This document shows, piece after piece, positions 1,009-42,273 of a stretch of DNA of 50,364 bases. A program made the translations under genes and the position numbers. The DNA comes from a virus (taxonomy: Duplodnaviria; Heunggongvirae; Uroviricota; Caudoviricetes): the IMG/VR virus record IMGVR_UViG_2563366831_000011, positions 1 to 50,364 of that record; one strand, 5' to 3'. The notes beneath the pieces were generated by a model, which ran no database searches, was not told where the DNA came from, and saw nothing but the letters and a program-made list of their open reading frames with translations. Position 1 is the stretch's first letter. Each line of letters starts with the position of its first letter.

Positions 1009-1083
1009 GTCCTCTTAGTTAAATGGATATAACGAGCCCCTCCTAAGGGCTAATTGCAGGTTCGATTCCTGCAGGGGACACCA
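1009..1083 (+). tRNA. argW: tRNA-Arg (anticodon CCU), intact, CCA encoded
   Basis: 75 nt. Acceptor stem GTCCTCT/AGGGGAC (one G-U pair). Anticodon arm AGCCC-CTCCTAA-GGGCT gives anticodon CCT. T-arm is GCAGG-TTCGATT-CCTGC. Ends ACCA. Confidence 0.95.
1069..1083. repeat. attL core (CTGCAGGGGACACCA), identical to the 3' end of argW
   Basis: Exact 15-nt copy recurs at 48661-48675. Flanking bases differ on both sides. Confidence 0.85.
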
Positions 1084-10030: not shown

Positions 10031-10387
10031 TCACAGGGTGACGCTGGAATCCAGGCCGTTGGTATCCACGATCGCAATAACGCCGGTAGTGCGGCGCGTA
10101 TCGCGGTTGTTAATCAGCGTCGGCTCAGCTCGCGCGATATAGCTCATCCGCAACGCTTCAACCTGAAGCGCGGCCGCCATGGCGCCAGTGCTGGCCTTAA
10201 CGTTAAGCAGCTCTTTGTAATTAACGCCGGTGTCTTTTTCGTAAATGCACTCGCCGCGTATAGCCAGGCATGCCGTCGCTACGTCCTGAGCGCAGGCGTA
10301 GGGGTTTTCAACCGTGGCGATATTACCCAGCTCATCAAGGACAAGATCCCAGGTGTCGGGATCGAGTTTGAGAGAGATTGTTTTCAT
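10031..10387 (-). CDS. Small baseplate protein (GPW/gp25-sized)
   Basis: 118-aa ORF directly upstream of the J-like gene. Confidence 0.5.
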   Translation of the reverse strand: MKTISLKLDPDTWDLVLDELGNIATVENPYACAQDVATACLAIRGECIYEKDTGVNYKELLNVKASTGAMAAALQVEALRMSYIARAEPTLINNRDTRRTTGVIAIVDTNGLDSSVTL

Positions 10388-10400
10388 GGATTTCGCCCAT

Positions 10401-10423
10401 AAAAAAACCCAGCCGAAGCTGGG
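10401..10423 (-). terminator. Rho-independent terminator after ant
   Basis: Minus strand reads CCCAGC-TTCG-GCTGGG followed by T7. Confidence 0.75.
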
Positions 10424-10442
10424 TTTGTTAAGTTGTCAATTG

Positions 10443-11447
10443 TCAGTAGCGATGCAGTGAAGGCGGCAACTCTTTGTTCTTAAGTCTTACCCATGCGGAA
10501 AGATTCGTTGGTCCGTCTGGCTCATTGATATCAACATCTCGTGTGTGGTTGATTAAAACGTCTCTCGCCATTCCGATAACATACGAAAACTCATGACCGT
10601 AGTCGTAGCATCTTCCGGAATAGTTCGATTGAATTTGTTTTAATGCCGGATACAGTTCGCGGAATAATGCCTGTGATCGGTTAGCATAATCCCACAACCA
10701 TACAAGGCTGTTTGCTTCTTTTGCAGAAAGCTCGTTGGTGCTCTTCTCTTGTTTGCCAATGAACTCACCTTCAAGTGGAACTCGAGCTGCAAGTGACAGT
10801 GCTTCGGTAAACTGCTCCTCACTGATTTCTTTGTACGAACAGCCAAAATGAGATTTCAGTGACGACCACATAGTGATCATCGCCTTCGCCTGTTTTTCTT
10901 TTGGCAGAGACTGACCGCGACTCATGACGAGTTGTTTAATAGCTTCCTGCTGTTCAGTGGTGATTTTACCCGGCAACACCTTTTTAGCTTTGCGCGGGTT
11001 AACCACATGGCCTTTAGTCCAGTACTCGTAGAGCACATCGTCACACTCTTCCTGATACTGGATTACCTTGTCGCGGATTTCAGGGCGGACTTTGTTTGGT
11101 TGAATGCTTGAAAGCCAAGCCGCAAATTTACGAAAGGCAAGACATGTCATTAACTGTTTACCGCCAGCAGAAGGTATTTCGATTTCCGAAATACCTTTGG
11201 CAAACCTCTGTTTTAACTTAACAAATTGAGCAGCCCAAACCATCCCCATACCTTCAACAACAGGCTTCATAGGAACATAAGGCTCATTGTTAATTCCAAC
11301 CAAAAAGAGATTTGTTCCGTGGAATGGAACATTGATTGTGCGATCTGCAATTGCTAAACTAGTCATATCAGTTTTCTCGTGGTTAACTGGTAATTTAGAA
11401 GCCTCAATGGTTGCAGCCATTGAGGCTTCGCTGTTTTTAGCGACCAT
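10443..11447 (-). CDS. ant: Antirepressor Ant (P22 Ant-type N- and C-domains)
   Basis: 334 aa from [13 protein letters not shown]. The segment [29 protein letters not shown]...LKQRFAKG resembles the P22 antirepressor N-domain. The start overlaps the arc stop (ATGGTCGCTAA). Confidence 0.75.
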
Positions 11448-11610
11448 TCGCCACCTCTTCCCTAACACCTTTTGCCAGCAAACGAACAATTGCAGAGTTC
11501 AGAGATATACAGTCCATTTCCGCCAGGCGGCGAAGGTCTTCATTCAGCCGTGATGGAAGGCGAAGGTTGAGTTTGATATTTTTGCGCTCAGTGAAAAGTG
11601 TATCTTGCAT
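11437..11610 (-). CDS. arc: Arc-like ribbon-helix-helix repressor (57 aa; below the ORF-track cutoff)
   Basis: My own translation: [57 protein letters not shown]. It has the RHH pattern (beta-strand KLNLRLP plus two helices), an AGGAG SD, and sits immediately upstream of ant as in P22 immI. Confidence 0.7.
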
Positions 11611-11717
11611 TATCTAATCTCCTTTATTTGGTGCCAAAGTGACACCATGAAGGCCATGATGCCACCATTGAAATCGTATGGCAATATGGCACCATGATTT
11701 TTTTTGAGAGATTTGCA
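11611..11717. promoter_or_regulatory. Divergent promoter/operator region of the immI-like module
   Basis: Near-palindrome TGGTGCCAAAGTGACACCA (11629-11647). Repeated TG(G/A/C)CACCA motifs at 11640-11647, 11660-11667 and 11687-11694. The region lies between the divergent arc and mnt-like genes. Confidence 0.5.
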
Positions 11718-12038
11718 ATGGCCGAAAAACAAGTAAAAGACTACGACAAGTTCAACCTCCGTTTTCCTGACGGAATGCGAGATGCTATAGCTGAACGAGC
11801 CAAACGAAACGGGCGCTCTATGAACTCAGAGATTGTTCAGATACTGGAAGATGCCTTGAATGCAGAAAATACACTCGGGGAAATAGCAGATAAAATTAAC
11901 AGCGTCTCGGTTCCGCTAAATGTTGATGCGCTAGTTCAACTTCAAGCCCAGGTTATCGCCATGCAAAAAGAAATACAGGAAAAGTTCAGAGAGCAGAACG
12001 AAAAGTTGAGAGAACTGCTAAACAAAAAACCCACCTGA
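11718..12038 (+). CDS. Mnt-like repressor with Arc-type RHH N-terminal domain
   Basis: 106 aa from MAEKQVKDYDKFNLRFPDGMRDAIAERAKRNGRSMNSEIVQILEDAL, an Arc-domain pattern, with a coiled-coil C-terminus. It is divergent from arc-ant as mnt is in P22. Confidence 0.65.
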   Translation: MAEKQVKDYDKFNLRFPDGMRDAIAERAKRNGRSMNSEIVQILEDALNAENTLGEIADKINSVSVPLNVDALVQLQAQVIAMQKEIQEKFREQNEKLRELLNKKPT

Positions 12039-12049
12039 CGGTGGGTTTT
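12024..12049. terminator. Bidirectional rho-independent terminator shared by the convergent mnt-like and lipoprotein genes
   Basis: A6-CCCACC-TGAC-GGTGGG-T4. There are U-tracts on both strands. Confidence 0.75.
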
Positions 12050-12051
12050 GG

Positions 12052-12705
12052 CTAGTACATCGACTTGATCTGCGTGGTACCGTCCGGAACGCCGTACTTG
12101 CTCATTTTCCAACAGGCCTCAGCAACCTGGATTATTTGGTATCTCATTTCAGGGCCAATTCCTTCTGTTAAGCTAATGTGCTGTTTCATAAACTCAAGGG
12201 TCACGCCTTCCCTTTGGGCTGCCCCCGCCACCCGGCACATATGCCTTACCCCGGCGTCAGAATCAGCCTGCTGGTATGGGTATCGGGCCATTAGAGAATA
12301 GTAGACATTATTTAAAGTGTAAGACGCAGCATCAATCTCACGCTTGGCCATACACTCCTTACTAGCCTGACACTCAGCTTCTTTCTGTGCTGCAAATGCT
12401 TCGTTTTCTTTTCTTTCTTTTTCTCTTTTTTTATCCATCATGGAATCGAAGACATTGGCATATTTATTGTAGTAGCAGACGTTATCTTTAAGGCATTCGC
12501 TTGTGTTTTGCTCAGGAAGGTTTAATCCAGTAACGTTTTTATATATCTCTCTTAGATCGTCTACAGACTGAGTACCACCTGAATTTGTTTTGAATTTTTG
12601 CTTATCAAAGCCATGCTCTTTTTGGTATTGGATAGCCTCAGTAGGAGATAAAGCACAGCTTGATAATAAAAATACCAAGGGGATAAAATATATTTTACTT
12701 ACCAT
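12052..12705 (-). CDS. Lipoprotein of unknown function (moron; at the sieA-equivalent position next to immI)
   Basis: 217 aa. The signal peptide and lipobox are MVSKIYFIPLVFLLSSC. The gene is visibly AT-richer than its neighbours and ends at the bidirectional terminator. Confidence 0.75.
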   Translation of the reverse strand: MVSKIYFIPLVFLLSSCALSPTEAIQYQKEHGFDKQKFKTNSGGTQSVDDLREIYKNVTGLNLPEQNTSECLKDNVCYYNKYANVFDSMMDKKREKERKENEAFAAQKEAECQASKECMAKREIDAASYTLNNVYYSLMARYPYQQADSDAGVRHMCRVAGAAQREGVTLEFMKQHISLTEGIGPEMRYQIIQVAEACWKMSKYGVPDGTTQIKSMY

Positions 12706-12706
12706 T

Positions 12707-13294
12707 TCACGGCTCCAGGGGTTCAGTTCGGCTTCCTCCTGATACTACCCCACCATGAGTATGCCCATCAACGATAGAACCGTCGACAAGCTCAAGCTGC
12801 CCGTTTGGATGGACTTTCAGGCCGTTGATGTTAACCACTCCAGGGCTCTGTATGTTTATTCCGCTTCCTGTAAACTCAGCGAACTCCGTGGGTTCATCGT
12901 TCAAACTAGCGATAGCAGTGATGTAAACAGCATCCGAGTATGAATGGCGCCGCTGAGTTGGCGGTGGTCCACTTTGCCTTGACGCTCTGACATTGGTTGT
13001 GTCTTTGTCACAGGCGATTACCAGTCCAATATCGCCAATGCGGGGAGTCATTTTTACAGCGCTGTTCCCAGCCTGATACCGAATGAAGGGGATGTCATAT
13101 ACCTCCTGACATTTAATCTCCCCCCCGGAAACGTTCGCGCCGCTCACAAGAGGTAGCACAGTCATAACGCCATCACCAACATCTTTAACCAGAACAATAT
13201 CTGCAAAAACATTGCCCTTTGATGCCGTGGCTATAAGGGACAAGATCGCGTTACCCTGACAGGAGATATCAGAAGCTTTTTGGTTAGTTGCCAT
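12707..13294 (-). CDS. Baseplate central spike / assembly protein V-like (Mu gp45 / P2 gpV type)
   Basis: 195 aa from MATNQKASD. It has an OB-fold-like N-half, and the C-terminus GSIVDGHTHGG is reminiscent of spike tips. The start was chosen at 13294, overlapping the upstream stop. Confidence 0.55.
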   Translation of the reverse strand: MATNQKASDISCQGNAILSLIATASKGNVFADIVLVKDVGDGVMTVLPLVSGANVSGGEIKCQEVYDIPFIRYQAGNSAVKMTPRIGDIGLVIACDKDTTNVRASRQSGPPPTQRRHSYSDAVYITAIASLNDEPTEFAEFTGSGINIQSPGVVNINGLKVHPNGQLELVDGSIVDGHTHGGVVSGGSRTEPLEP

Positions 13295-18696: not shown

Positions 18697-19140
18697 TTAC
18701 GCTGAGTAGTCTGCCGGGGTGACAGTTTCCCACTGGATAAGTCCAGTTACCGGCTGAAGAACACGGCCGGCAGACGGCATGCGGCGTGCGCGCTGCAGGA
18801 TACCGTTAGTCATGATGTACTTTTTACCCAGCGACGGCAGGATCACAGTCCCATTGACACGCAGCACAGACCGCGTGGTCATCTGCGTGGTTTGCCAGTT
18901 GTCGATGTACTTAATCGACGGGGATGATGCCGCCAGATGGAAAGTCCACGGCAGATCACCATAAACAAAACCACCCAGCAGTTTACCGTCAGCAGTACGC
19001 TGGTACTCTGCCATGTCGGTATCACCCATTTCGAAGATGTTTTGTGCTTCGAACTGTTCCAGGTTAAACCCTGACGGGTAGAGCTCAGCGATTACCAGCT
19101 CAATGATGGCGTCAGCCGCCGTAATATTTTGACCGGCCAT
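18697..19140 (-). CDS. Tail tube protein
   Basis: 147-aa ORF directly after the sheath gene (ATGA-type overlap). The call rests on order and size. Confidence 0.6.
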   Translation of the reverse strand: MAGQNITAADAIIELVIAELYPSGFNLEQFEAQNIFEMGDTDMAEYQRTADGKLLGGFVYGDLPWTFHLAASSPSIKYIDNWQTTQMTTRSVLRVNGTVILPSLGKKYIMTNGILQRARRMPSAGRVLQPVTGLIQWETVTPADYSA

Positions 19141-20621
19141 TACTGCACCTCCGTGCTGTTAACGGTGATACCCTGGATGATCCCGCCGTCGGTGTACCAG
19201 AAGTAAACCGTTGGCTTGGTACGCGCGGCGCGCATTGCCGGGGTGAACGGGCCGATGTAGACGTAATACCCTTCAGCCATAAGCGAATCCGTAACATCGA
19301 CGCCAGCGATGGCGTTAATCTGGTCGATCTGCGACTGGTCAAGATCGGTGCCCGCCGTCATGCCACCCCACGCCCTGAATTGCTCAATGGTCGGCTTCAT
19401 GCACGACTCAATGCGAGCTTTTCCGGCTGCTGCGTAGGGCAGATTGCTCGCCTGCTGGAACAGCGCAACGAGAGCCGCCTGCAACTGAGCATTTACCCAT
19501 ACCTGACCAGCCCATGCGTCAAGCCAGGCATAATCACCGGTAATAGAGCCGGGTGCCCACTGGTTGGTTTCGACGGCATTCGAGGCATAGTTGCCGTAGA
19601 AGTTATAACCGTTGGCCTTGGCCGCCTCGTAATCAGTATCGTTACTGATCATCGGCAACAGGCCGGACACCTGACGACCATTCAGCGAACAGCGCCCATT
19701 GGCCTGCGTGAAGTTCAGCGCGGCCACAAACCCCATCGCATTTGCTGCGTGGTTCGGGTAACCATACACCGGGCAGGTATCGTTATAGGCGTAGGTGTTG
19801 ATGATGTCGTACACCAGTGCATTCGAGCTGCCCGCCACGATTGCCGTTCCTGATGCGTCCCATGGGACATAGGCAAAGCGGTGGTTCTGGCTGTTTGTCC
19901 AGAGCGCAAACGCATTAGCCTGGTCTTTGGTGACAGCGAACGTCGTGGAGAATGTTACCCAGTCCTGCTCTTTGGCCAGAATGGCAGTAAAGATATCGTC
20001 AACCACTGCCGGCGCCGCACCCTGAGAGATCACCGCGCCGGTCGCTTCGGTCAGTTTCAGACCCGTAGCAAGCGTACCTTCATCGGCAAAGGTAATGGTG
20101 CTATCCACGCCCGTGGTGGCAGAGGTGATGATGAATTTCTTCAGCACGCTATCCCAGGTCACTACAACCGAGGAGCCAATGCCGGTTTCAATCAGCTCTG
20201 CCGCGTTATCAAAACTGGTGGCGCCGCTGAGGTTGATAGCCGCAGAAGTCTCCTCCGTGCCGTCAACTGTCAGAGTCAACGTACCAGAAAGCAACTTGAG
20301 CTGTGCCAGCGTGGTCGCTGCGTGCGATCCGGAACGAAGGAATGCCGCCACTGCTGCGGTATTGAATCGGCTAAAATACAGCTTGCCAGGCATCTGTGTT
20401 TTACCGGTGAATGCGGCGAAATACAGCACCGCGGCGGTGTACTCAATCGACGCGCTGCCGAAGTACGCCTTTACCTCATCCGCACTGGAAAATGAGGGTA
20501 CTGCACCAACCGGCGCATATGCGCTGTCGGTCAGGAACAGGCCATTGAGATCAATAGCTGTCCCTGTCGCCTTCAGTACGCCGGGAAGCATCTGGGCGAT
20601 TTTTGATAGCGAAATTGCCAT
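19140..20621 (-). CDS. Contractile tail sheath protein (DUF3383-like by recollection)
   Basis: 493 aa, positioned between the neck proteins and the tube gene. Confidence 0.65.
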   Translation of the reverse strand: MAISLSKIAQMLPGVLKATGTAIDLNGLFLTDSAYAPVGAVPSFSSADEVKAYFGSASIEYTAAVLYFAAFTGKTQMPGKLYFSRFNTAAVAAFLRSGSHAATTLAQLKLLSGTLTLTVDGTEETSAAINLSGATSFDNAAELIETGIGSSVVVTWDSVLKKFIITSATTGVDSTITFADEGTLATGLKLTEATGAVISQGAAPAVVDDIFTAILAKEQDWVTFSTTFAVTKDQANAFALWTNSQNHRFAYVPWDASGTAIVAGSSNALVYDIINTYAYNDTCPVYGYPNHAANAMGFVAALNFTQANGRCSLNGRQVSGLLPMISNDTDYEAAKANGYNFYGNYASNAVETNQWAPGSITGDYAWLDAWAGQVWVNAQLQAALVALFQQASNLPYAAAGKARIESCMKPTIEQFRAWGGMTAGTDLDQSQIDQINAIAGVDVTDSLMAEGYYVYIGPFTPAMRAARTKPTVYFWYTDGGIIQGITVNSTEVQ

Positions 20622-33494: not shown

Positions 33495-33570
33495 TGGTGC
33501 TGTTTAACGGACTTGAACCGCTACCCATTCGCTTACAAGGCGACCGCTCTACCATTGGAGCTAAAACAGC
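33495..33570 (-). tRNA. Phage tRNA-Thr (anticodon UGU)
   Basis: The reverse complement is GCTGTTTTAGCTCCAATGGTAGAGCGGTCGCCTTGTAAGCGAATGGGTAGCGGTTCAAGTCCGTTAAACAGCACCA. It has a 7-bp acceptor stem, the anticodon loop CTTGTAA, and a T-loop TTCAAGT. There is one mismatch at the base of the anticodon stem. Confidence 0.75.
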
Positions 33571-33575
33571 ATGTT

Positions 33576-33650
33576 TGGCGGGACAGCGTGGACTCGAACC
33601 ACGATAAGAAGGTTAACAGCCTTCCGTAATGACCTTTATACGACTGACCC
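33576..33650 (-). tRNA. Phage tRNA-Asn (anticodon GUU)
   Basis: The reverse complement is GGGTCAGTCGTATAAAGGTCATTACGGAAGGCTGTTAACCTTCTTATCGTGGTTCGAGTCCACGCTGTCCCGCCA. It has a perfect anticodon stem GAAGG/CCTTC with loop CTGTTAA and a T-arm CGTGG-TTCGAGT-CCACG. There is one acceptor mismatch and a weak D-stem. Confidence 0.7.
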
Positions 33651-33713: not shown

Positions 33714-34232
33714 CTAAATGGATAATTGCATGTCAAGGCTTTTAACAGCAACATGCTTAACTTTCTCAACACGTTTACGCATTTTAAAAGCATTTTGCAT
33801 TGGCTGGTATAAAACAAATAATGACGCTTTCAGGATGTCGTCAATTTCGTTTCTACAGGTTGCCAGTGAAGGTTTTCTCCATCCCTCGCCACCACGTCCA
33901 CACATCTTGCGTGGCTTTGCAGTCGCGTGATAGTAGGATGCAATTGCTCGCTTAGATGAACCATGAGCGTAGTAGCTTAGGAGGATGCCAAAGGCTTTCT
34001 TGTCAATGTACATGACGGAATCGACGACCTGAGAAATCAACATTCCATCGTCATCATTACACATTGGCCTTGTCATAACTCTTCCCGGCTCTACGCTCTC
34101 CATGAACTTCGCTATTACGCTGCTCATGCGCTTTTCCAGACGACCTGAATAAACCCATGCGCCCCACAGTTCAAGCCAGCCATTCAGCCACTCATGCTGT
34201 TCTTTGGTGAGGTTTAGTTCTCTTATGCCCAC
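33714..34232 (-). CDS. Late-gene antiterminator Q (non-lambda Q family)
   Basis: 172 aa. The position (after the nin genes, before lysis) and the motif [14 protein letters not shown] are typical of Q proteins of the phage 21/82 type. It has a GTG start that overlaps the ninI stop. Confidence 0.7.
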
Positions 34233-40273: not shown

Positions 40274-40483
<210 letters not shown>

Positions 40484-40571: not shown

Positions 40572-41288
<717 letters not shown>

Positions 41289-41415: not shown

Positions 41416-42273
41416 ATGAAGAAAGCAGCAATTTTAATTGATGCGGGTTTTTTCATGCAGCGTGTTCATGCTACGCATCGTAAACACTTCGCCGAGCATG
41501 AACTGACTGCGCAATGCATAATGAAAGTAATATGGTCAATGGTTCTTTCCCATCTTAATGGAAAACGTCAATCACAAGAACGTAGGGAACCGCTTGAGCT
41601 TTATAGAATTTACTTCTATGACTGTCCACCACTCGACATTCAAACACGCCTTCCACTTCCTGAGCATGGCAATAAGACGCCTGGTCGCAAGAATTTCAAA
41701 CTCGAAAAATCATATATTCTGAGAACGGAGCTGCATGAAGAGTTAAGAAAAACTCGAAAAACAGCCTTAAGATTAGGGAATCTTGTTGATAATAAGCGAT
41801 GGCAACTAACTACATTCTCCCTTGATGCTCTGATGAAAGGAACGAAAAAATGGGATGAACTGACAAATGATGATTTTTACTATGACATCAAACAAAAACA
41901 AGTTGATATCAAGCTAGGGATGGATATCACGACTTTAGCTTATGAAAAACTTGTTGATGTAATTGTCCTTGTTGCTGGGGACTCAGACTTTGTGCCTGCC
42001 GCCAAACACGCCAGAATTAAAGGTATTGATTTTATTCTTGATCCACTAAGACAGAATGTTACCCCATCACTGTCAGAGCACATTGATGGAGTTCAGTCAT
42101 ACAGCTTGATATCAGGACTTGCCGATGCTTTACATGTTGAGCCAGACCCGGCACCTGACTGGTGGGAAGATCGAAAAAAAGGCAAGCCTAGAGGAAAAAA
42201 CAATAGCGGTAAACGCAGGTATGGAAACACTCAAGCTGAGTCTGCAAAGAAACATCAAAGAAATAAACGATAA
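41416..42273 (+). CDS. NYN/LabA-like (PIN-like) predicted ribonuclease with a Lys/Arg-rich C-terminal tail, in the rexAB position
   Basis: 285 aa. NYN-type motifs are KAAILIDAGFF (N-terminal Asp), DIKLGMDI and VIVLVAGDSDFVPAAKHARIKGIDFIL. The C-terminus is KKGKPRGKNNSGKRRYGNTQAESAKKHQRNKR. It is AT-rich relative to the lambda flanks. Confidence 0.6.
   Translation: MKKAAILIDAGFFMQRVHATHRKHFAEHELTAQCIMKVIWSMVLSHLNGKRQSQERREPLELYRIYFYDCPPLDIQTRLPLPEHGNKTPGRKNFKLEKSYILRTELHEELRKTRKTALRLGNLVDNKRWQLTTFSLDALMKGTKKWDELTNDDFYYDIKQKQVDIKLGMDITTLAYEKLVDVIVLVAGDSDFVPAAKHARIKGIDFILDPLRQNVTPSLSEHIDGVQSYSLISGLADALHVEPDPAPDWWEDRKKGKPRGKNNSGKRRYGNTQAESAKKHQRNKR

Follow-up and report, generated by a model that had tools for sequence, protein, structure and literature searches.

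The immI region of phage P22 comprises mnt, an operator/promoter region, arc, the antisense RNA sar and the antirepressor gene ant; it is located between genes 16 and 9, and has been described as part of a variable region within the late operon (PMC8022706). Homologues of Ant have been catalogued in 126 Shiga toxin (Stx) phage genomes (PMC8136144), and the Ant protein of the Stx phage Phi24B has a P22-type C-terminal region (PMC3064807). The Gifsy antirepressors work in trans, affecting several prophages (PMC3121763). Phi24B Ant and the Gifsy/Fels antirepressors are phage proteins that inactivate CI-type repressors by binding, as would, by analogy, the antirepressor described here. It is encoded in IMG/VR virus record IMGVR_UViG_2563366831_000011 (Caudoviricetes), whose 50,364 nucleotides are referred to below as the window.

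A complete P22 immI-type cassette spans window positions 10402-12045, with all five components of P22 immI present. It is very likely (probability roughly 0.85) that this is an intact secondary-immunity cassette in the late (tail) operon of a lambdoid myovirus prophage that is integrated at argW of E. coli and has the immunity of lambda. Such a cassette is already known, widespread and annotated, and its location is of the usual kind. The five features on which a first-pass annotation of this DNA had based a P22 immI-like reading were all recovered, and the match with P22 is closer than had been claimed because a sar-like antisense RNA, missing from that annotation, is also present in the arc-ant spacer.

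Architecture of the cassette

The cassette and its boundaries consist of the following features:

10405-10426, - strand: intrinsic terminator after ant, the left boundary hairpin (terminator scan; 9 pairs followed by a T-run)
10443-11366, - strand: ant, P22-type antirepressor, 307 aa (Pfam, PHROG, P22 alignment and the Prokaryotic Genome Annotation Pipeline, PGAP)
11332-11360, + strand: putative sar promoter (Psar) within the 5' end of ant, TTGATT-17-TAAACT plus TG extension (hexamer scan, 8/12)
11366-11436, + strand: sar-like antisense RNA, two hairpins, complementary to the ribosome-binding region of ant (Rfam, folding, covariation)
11398-11429, + strand: sar-like terminator hairpin followed by a T-run (terminator scan)
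11437-11610, - strand: arc-like gene, 57-aa ribbon-helix-helix (RHH) repressor (Pfam Arc; phrog_228/582 'Arc-like repressor')
11611-11717, no strand: divergent control region, 107 bp, with a near-palindrome, three operator-like repeats and candidate promoters
11718-12038, + strand: mnt-like gene, 106 aa, N-terminal RHH domain and C-terminal helical region (Pfam Arc; phrog_1287)
12026-12049, no strand: hairpin terminator containing the mnt-like stop codon, the right cassette boundary (terminator scan)

The likeness to P22 immI extends from gene order and orientations to the two P22_AR domains of Ant, the pairing of an Arc-like with a Mnt-like RHH protein, and an antisense sar-like RNA in the gap of ~70 nt between arc and ant, with its 5' end directly next to the start codon of ant. 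Immediately past the -10 hexamer of the putative ant promoter (Pant) comes a palindromic site, the hairpins after ant and at the mnt end are homologous to those of P22, and both cassettes are located in a late operon beside another small cargo gene. Unlike P22 Mnt (83 aa), the Mnt-like protein has 106 aa, the roughly 23 additional residues preceding the predicted C-terminal helix, and identity between the Arc proteins is no more than 30%. The operator-like sequences show no relationship to Oarc or Omnt of P22; three sites here share a TGnCACCA half-site. The virion is contractile-tailed, and the primary immunity is that of lambda, not of P22 c2.

The ant gene encodes a P22-type antirepressor

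Profile searches for the P22 antirepressor and Arc/Mnt families gave matches to P22_AR_N, P22_AR_C and Arc in the three genes, in agreement with the first-pass assignments. Both Ant domains scored far above the Pfam cut-offs (P22_AR_N, 1.7e-39, 135 bits; P22_AR_C, 1.4e-29, 102 bits), and the best PHROG assignment was phrog_245 'anti-repressor Ant' (6e-109). BLASTP aligned the protein with P22 Ant at 56% identity over 315 aa (E = 6e-121), the last ~100 aa being about 93% identical. A sequence search of the PDB with Ant returned no relative of solved structure. The exact 307-aa protein is present on 99 public contigs, under the name 'phage antirepressor Ant'.

The ant frame is open further upstream, to ATG 11447 (334 aa) and TTG 11489 (348 aa), and the first-pass annotation, like some gene callers, had a 334-aa Ant overlapping a 57-aa Arc-like gene. 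The Arc-like gene at 11437-11610 (- strand) is real, but the overlap is most likely an artefact of taking the longest open reading frame. The alignment with P22 Ant starts at Met28 of the 334-aa version, which corresponds to ATG 11366, and the N-termini from there (MTSLAIA in the window, MTSIAIL at the equivalent start of a Klebsiella phage homologue and MNSIAIL in P22) conform to MxS(I/L)AI in all three lineages. PGAP calls a 307-aa Ant, with a 70-nt gap after arc, in the copy from O157:H7 (98% identical), and that spacer is filled by the sar element. The 334-aa version was rejected on these grounds. The 27 upstream codons that are open in the ant frame are not significant (estimated chance about 0.27). 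The conserved start of ant is thus predicted to be ATG 11366, giving 307 aa.

In the cassette variant of E. coli AMR2684 (L002, 5530-5614), the antirepressor start called by PGAP is an ATG that overlaps arc. A conserved-looking Shine-Dalgarno sequence and ATG (MNIVARSDL...) lie downstream of the sar-like hairpin of this variant, in a frame that differs from the annotated coding sequence, which may reflect a frameshift or a mis-annotation.

Two ribbon-helix-helix repressor genes flank the control region

The arc-like gene has the same position and orientation relative to ant as arc in P22. Its product matched Pfam Arc marginally (22.1 bits; cut-off, 20.4) and shows 30% identity with P22 Arc in an alignment of 40 aa. 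The gene is identical to the O157 copy, and the exact protein is present on at least 1000 public contigs. The divergent 106-aa protein, to which an Arc-type RHH N-terminal domain had been ascribed in the first pass, indeed matched Pfam Arc at 73.3 bits and phrog_1287 at 5e-51; its RHH domain has 50% identity with that of P22 Mnt, and the protein matches the PDB entries for Mnt (1mnt) and Arc. At its C-terminus, only the last ~10 residues align with P22 Mnt (LRELLNKKPT versus LKDLYKKTT), and a single-sequence AlphaFold2 model of low confidence (predicted local distance difference test score, 64.5) predicts a helix at 69-102. Its gene has two synonymous differences from the O157 copy, and the exact protein occurs on at least 1000 public contigs. 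At the beta-strand positions occupied by Q-N-R in P22 Arc and by H-N-R in P22 Mnt, both RHH proteins here have K-N-R.

Database labels attached to these genes ('HicB family antitoxin', 'partition protein ATPase' and 'plasmid stability protein', which are PHROG labels and source names) and weak Pfam HicB matches (18.7 and 17.3 bits, both below cut-off) would point to a toxin-antitoxin or partition system instead of a pair of repressors. The HicB matches, however, cover the RHH fold only, the cassette contains no toxin or ParA-type gene, and the partner of the RHH genes is a bona fide P22-type Ant. Moreover, the P22 mnt entry itself bears the PHROG-derived label 'partition protein ATPase'. PADLOC found nothing significant in the cassette proteins, and NCBIfam and PADLOC searches of these proteins were uninformative. 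A toxin-antitoxin or partition function is therefore extremely improbable and was rejected on profile, label and PADLOC evidence.

A predicted sar-like antisense RNA occupies the arc-ant spacer

The Rfam model of sar (RF00262) aligned over its full length at 11366-11432 (29.5 bits, E = 0.0023), and this was the best Rfam family there. The RNA is termed sar-like, rather than a member of RF00262, because this score lies below the gathering score of 43 bits. Rfam matches to STnc370, istR, rsmX, sroH and ctRNA, all located on terminator hairpins, were all sub-threshold and were discarded. The sar-like RNA is predicted to fold into two hairpins (minimum free energy -32.3 kcal/mol, z = -7.57). Across the window, P22 and a Klebsiella phage, 8 of the 23 consensus pairs are changed on both sides yet still paired, and across four lineages 6 of the 14 terminator pairs are doubly changed with pairing kept. 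Sar-like matches were also found at the same spot in three other cassette variants (L001, L002 from AMR2684, and L008), relatives scoring 34.8 and 27.1 bits with the sar model. The 70-nt spacer containing the RNA is identical to the O157 copy. The putative Psar lies 6-7 nt upstream of the RNA 5' end, a geometry like that of the annotated P22 Psar; its consensus match suggests that the element at 11332-11360 may serve as the sar promoter.

The control region contains clustered operator-like sites

The near-palindrome and repeated motif that had been noticed between the RHH genes were both confirmed. The 19-bp near-palindrome TGGTGCCAAAGTGACACCA lies at 11629-11647. Within 11629-11694, the half-site TGGTGNCA occurs four times out of 12 matches in the whole window, and shuffled sequences gave a mean of 6.2 matches per whole 50 kb; a Poisson estimate gives 0.008 expected matches per 66 bp and P(>=4) of about 1e-10. 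Three 16-nt direct repeats, GCCAnnnTGnCACCAT, are located at 11633-11648, 11653-11668 and 11680-11695, and one half-site, TGnCACCA, is common to all three operator-like sites.

Promoters were assigned by consensus matching only, and, like the operators, they are candidates predicted from sequence. On the - strand, TTGCCA (11684-11679)-17-CATCAT (11661-11656), which has a TG extension, is the candidate Pant. The palindrome is just downstream of its -10 hexamer, the position held by Omnt in P22. On the + strand, the candidates for the promoter of the mnt-like gene (Pmnt) are ATGCCA-17-CAATAT (11659-11687) and TTGAAA-16-CACCAT (11668-11695). The candidate Pant (11684-11656) and Pmnt (11659-11687) overlap almost fully, with a 3-bp offset, much as in P22. 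The best-scoring promoter, TTGGCA-17-GATAAT at 11637-11609 on the - strand (10/12), was rejected as Pant since its -10 hexamer overlaps the arc ATG. If active, it would yield an ant transcript without a translatable arc; this sigma-70 match is probably fortuitous, as it is absent from the AMR2684 cassette variant.

Across arc, sar and the control region, the O157:H7 copy differs by substitutions at two positions only, both in the control region: 11644 (A here, G there) and 11658 (G here, A there). The former affects the conserved CACCA within the palindromic site, and the latter the -10 hexamer of the putative Pant, which reads CATCAT in the window and CATTAT in O157. These differences may represent an operator/promoter variant.

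The K-N-R DNA-contact triad shared by both RHH proteins and the single half-site present in all operator-like sites suggest that the two repressors may share operators, for which the Arc-like and Mnt-like proteins may compete. If so, this would amount to a simplification of the P22 circuit, which has separate Oarc and Omnt.

The cassette lies in the late operon of a prophage with lambda immunity

The following features of the surrounding prophage bear on the cassette:

10031-10387, - strand: W-like baseplate gene
12052-12705, - strand: predicted lipoprotein gene, 217 aa, with a signal peptide ending in the lipobox LSSC (phrog_26209, unknown function)
12707-13294, - strand: baseplate spike gene
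19140-20621, - strand: sheath gene
33714-34232, - strand: Q antiterminator gene
40274-40474: Cro open reading frame, identical to that of lambda
40575-41288, + strand: lambda-type cI, the presumed target of Ant (233/237 residues identical to lambda CI)

The late genes are all on the - strand, in the order Q, holin, endolysin, spanin, terminase, sheath, tape-measure/transglycosylase, hub, spike, the slot that holds the cassette, W, J and tail fibres. As in P22, arc and ant are co-oriented with the Q-antiterminated late operon (- strand), and the mnt-like gene is opposed to it (+ strand). The cassette had been placed between the spike gene and the W/J-like genes; this position is right, but the cassette and the spike gene are separated by a further gene, that of the lipoprotein (12052-12705). 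The suggestion that a cassette inside a baseplate block is an oddity was not borne out, since P22 immI is itself in the late operon and the copies in Stx phages lie between tail genes L and K.

The prophage adjoins the tRNA-Arg(CCU) gene argW and yfdC of E. coli, with the integrase gene adjacent (window 1009-1083 and 1209-2405, both + strand), and the first 1150 bp of the window are 100% identical to E. coli chromosomes. Its description as a lambda-immunity phage holds: CI is 98% identical to lambda CI, and the right operator (OR) region from OR3 to OR1, with the promoters PRM and PR, matches lambda at 110 of 111 positions, the single change being outside the operators. Cro, CII and N are lambda-like, and CI, Cro and OR all have lambda specificity.

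Terminator hairpins delimit the cassette and its slot

The cassette is flanked by hairpin terminators on both sides (10405-10426 and 12026-12049), as the first-pass annotation had stated. At the left end, cassette homology begins at 10402-10403 and backbone homology stops at 10426-10428, and the overlap corresponds to the ant terminator hairpin. This hairpin is common to P22 (the ant terminator), Stx phage 2851, other Stx phages and backbone relatives without ant, and the version in the window is the P22/Stx allele. At the right end, homology to the Stx-phage cassette stops at 12045, inside the hairpin, which is also found at the P22 mnt end. Matching of E. coli and Klebsiella backbone relatives to the window resumes from 12707-12715.

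Window 10402-12045 is 96.9-98.1% identical to the cassette in Stx phages 2851, 1717, YYZ-2008, JLK-2012 and others, and in O157:H7 chromosomes. These near-identical copies have the same three genes, lying in and co-oriented with a tail operon, and differ from the window by the two control-region substitutions and 4-7 amino acid changes in Ant. In the Stx phages, which are siphoviruses, the cassette lies between the lambda-type tail genes L and K, unlike its position here between spike and W of a myovirus. At least 80% of the cassette is present in 267 of 5,426 complete E. coli genomes, where it is annotated as 'phage antirepressor Ant' with two 'Arc family DNA-binding protein' genes. The exact order spike, lipoprotein, mnt-like, arc, ant, W and J was found in several NCBI assemblies.

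A group of related Klebsiella and E. coli myoviruses (ST899-OXA48phi17.1, KP12, AMR2684 and phages in NCBI assemblies) has the same backbone and the same W-spike slot. In this group, a mnt-like gene likewise diverges from arc followed by an antirepressor gene, with sar-like matches at the arc-antirepressor junction, but sequences and effectors differ from those here, and other backbone relatives are without any cassette. The slot contents in relatives range from almost nothing to a zinc-ribbon gene, an unrelated 262-aa gene or other mnt-like/arc/antirepressor cassettes, whose effectors include an Ant with P22_AR_N only, or Rha/P22AR_C plus KilA.

The arrival of the cassette in this slot is best described, from the sequence comparisons, as ordinary lambdoid mosaicism at conserved boundary hairpins. 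A stronger version, in which the W-spike slot would be a dedicated exchange site for antirepressor cassettes by means of the two terminator hairpins and the Arc-like and Mnt-like proteins would compete for the same operators, is tentative. In such an exchange, cassettes would swap at conserved hairpins between the late operons of a podovirus (P22), siphoviruses (the L-K junction of Stx phages) and myoviruses.

The hypervariability of the slot, which in some relatives is empty or holds unrelated small genes, would also be expected if the cassette were an inert passenger, that is, non-functional mosaic DNA. However, the three open reading frames are intact, and in comparison with the O157 copy ant has 27 nucleotide differences leading to only 4 amino acid changes, the substitutions being overwhelmingly synonymous, with arc, the sar spacer and the Mnt-like protein unchanged, indicating purifying selection. 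Conservation extends to the hairpins, the operator repeats and the sar structure. An inert passenger is accordingly very unlikely.

Proposed mechanism and target of Ant

The following mechanism is proposed because of the homology with P22. In a lysogen, the Mnt-like repressor, transcribed against the late operon, would occupy the operator or operators overlapping Pant and keep arc-ant silent, so that the lambda-type CI stays active. Upon infection of a cell without Mnt, Pant would fire and produce a burst of Arc and Ant, after which Arc would shut the divergent promoters. The sar-like RNA, from a promoter inside the start of ant, would pair with the ribosome-binding region of ant and limit translation. 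Ant would bind CI-type repressors non-covalently and inactivate them, acting on its own lambda CI and possibly on heteroimmune lambdoid repressors of co-resident prophages. Unlike the cassette here, the Gifsy antirepressors are small, unrelated and LexA-controlled; LexA-type control is not evident for the cassette, whose putative regulation consists of two RHH repressors and an antisense RNA. An action of Ant on the resident CI, 98% identical to that of lambda, is plausible since the Ant protein of P22 reportedly works against lambda CI (PMC3064807, citing Susskind & Botstein 1975).

Several points weigh against a secondary-immunity cassette directed at the resident CI. Identity to P22 Ant falls to about 40% in the N-terminal half of the protein, so that target specificity may differ. 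The Arc-like protein barely clears the Pfam Arc threshold, the sar match remains below the Rfam gathering score (29.5 versus 43 bits), and the promoters are weak consensus matches, the best -10 hexamer on the - strand (GATAAT, 11614-11609) overlapping the arc start, so that it cannot serve arc. Finally, the Ant homologue of the Stx phage Phi24B affected induction efficiency, not superinfection immunity (PMC3064807).

This last observation leads to a different view of Ant, as mainly an induction booster for its own prophage, which would inactivate CI faster in the lytic programme, for example through late-operon read-through, with bipartite immunity not being its main role. Knocking out ant in Phi24B reduced expression from pR' following induction and left superinfection unaffected (PMC3064807). 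The orientation of arc-ant in the window is in line with this, as antiterminated transcripts of the Q-dependent late operon must cross both genes. On the other hand, the full Mnt/Arc/sar control apparatus is conserved, and in P22 this apparatus keeps ant off in lysogens, with transient expression on infection. A role confined mainly to induction is thus unlikely, albeit a serious alternative.

The repressors that accompany the cassette bear on whether the own CI is the relevant target. Ant could instead mainly hit the repressors of resident heteroimmune lambdoid prophages on infection. The cassette travels at 97-98% identity with different repressors, the CI of phage 2851 differing in its N-terminal domain, and several cassette-bearing Stx1a/Stx2c phages are without the lambda-type CI C-terminal domain at the DNA level. 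Furthermore, trans-acting antirepressors coordinate multi-prophage induction in Salmonella (PMC3121763). By contrast, the lambda-type CI C-terminal domain was found in at least 7 of 15 cassette-bearing phage records, compared with only 100 of 50,697 phage records, a co-occurrence that is compatible with cognate pairing, although the carriers are close relatives of each other and the positives are hence not independent. A specific link of the cassette to this domain was only partial, as the Stx1a- and Stx2c-converting records with the cassette are not among the 100 matches. Taken together, it is doubtful that Ant acts mainly on heteroimmune prophages with no relevance of its own CI, and a P22 immI-type secondary-immunity cassette with the resident CI as a plausible target remains the preferred reading.

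In phage 2851 (Stx2c; L019, 10372-11031), the C-terminal domain of CI is nearly identical to that of lambda, but the DNA-binding domain is not that of lambda.

Neighbouring genes

The lipoprotein gene (12052-12705) is separate cargo, outside the cassette, between the latter and the spike gene. The protein had no match in Pfam, NCBIfam or PADLOC, and a DNA search of the gene in the phage collection gave no match. The exact lipoprotein was found on 183 public contigs of E. coli and Klebsiella, always in the W-spike slot. Its gene beside the mnt-like gene recalls sieA beside mnt in P22, and by this analogy a role in superinfection exclusion may be guessed at.

Downstream of cI, in the position of lambda rexA/rexB, window 41416-42273 (+ strand) encodes a 285-aa protein with weak similarity to NYN/LabA-like nucleases. 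It matches phrog_5783, TIGR00288 (29.7 bits, below the cut-off) and, weakly, PADLOC NYN and HEC-09, and may act in defence or exclusion, with expression in the lysogen. Genes for tRNA-Thr(UGU) and tRNA-Asn(GUU) lie just downstream of the Q gene (window 33495-33650, - strand), the spot where Stx phages have tRNA genes and stx.

Implications

The significance of the locus beyond its correct annotation is small. Annotations should place the start of ant at ATG 11366 (307 aa), include the sar-like antisense RNA, so far unannotated, and avoid the names HicB antitoxin and partition protein for the RHH genes. The terminator-to-terminator boundaries show the same regulatory cassette moving between the tail operons of three virion types, in keeping with a principle of mosaicism, involving boundary sequences and variable late-operon slots, that is already established. 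As this prophage combines a lambda repressor with a P22-type antirepressor cassette, its immunity and induction are unlikely to be purely lambda-like, and the same applies to its cross-talk with lambdoid prophages in the same cell, among them Stx phages bearing this cassette.

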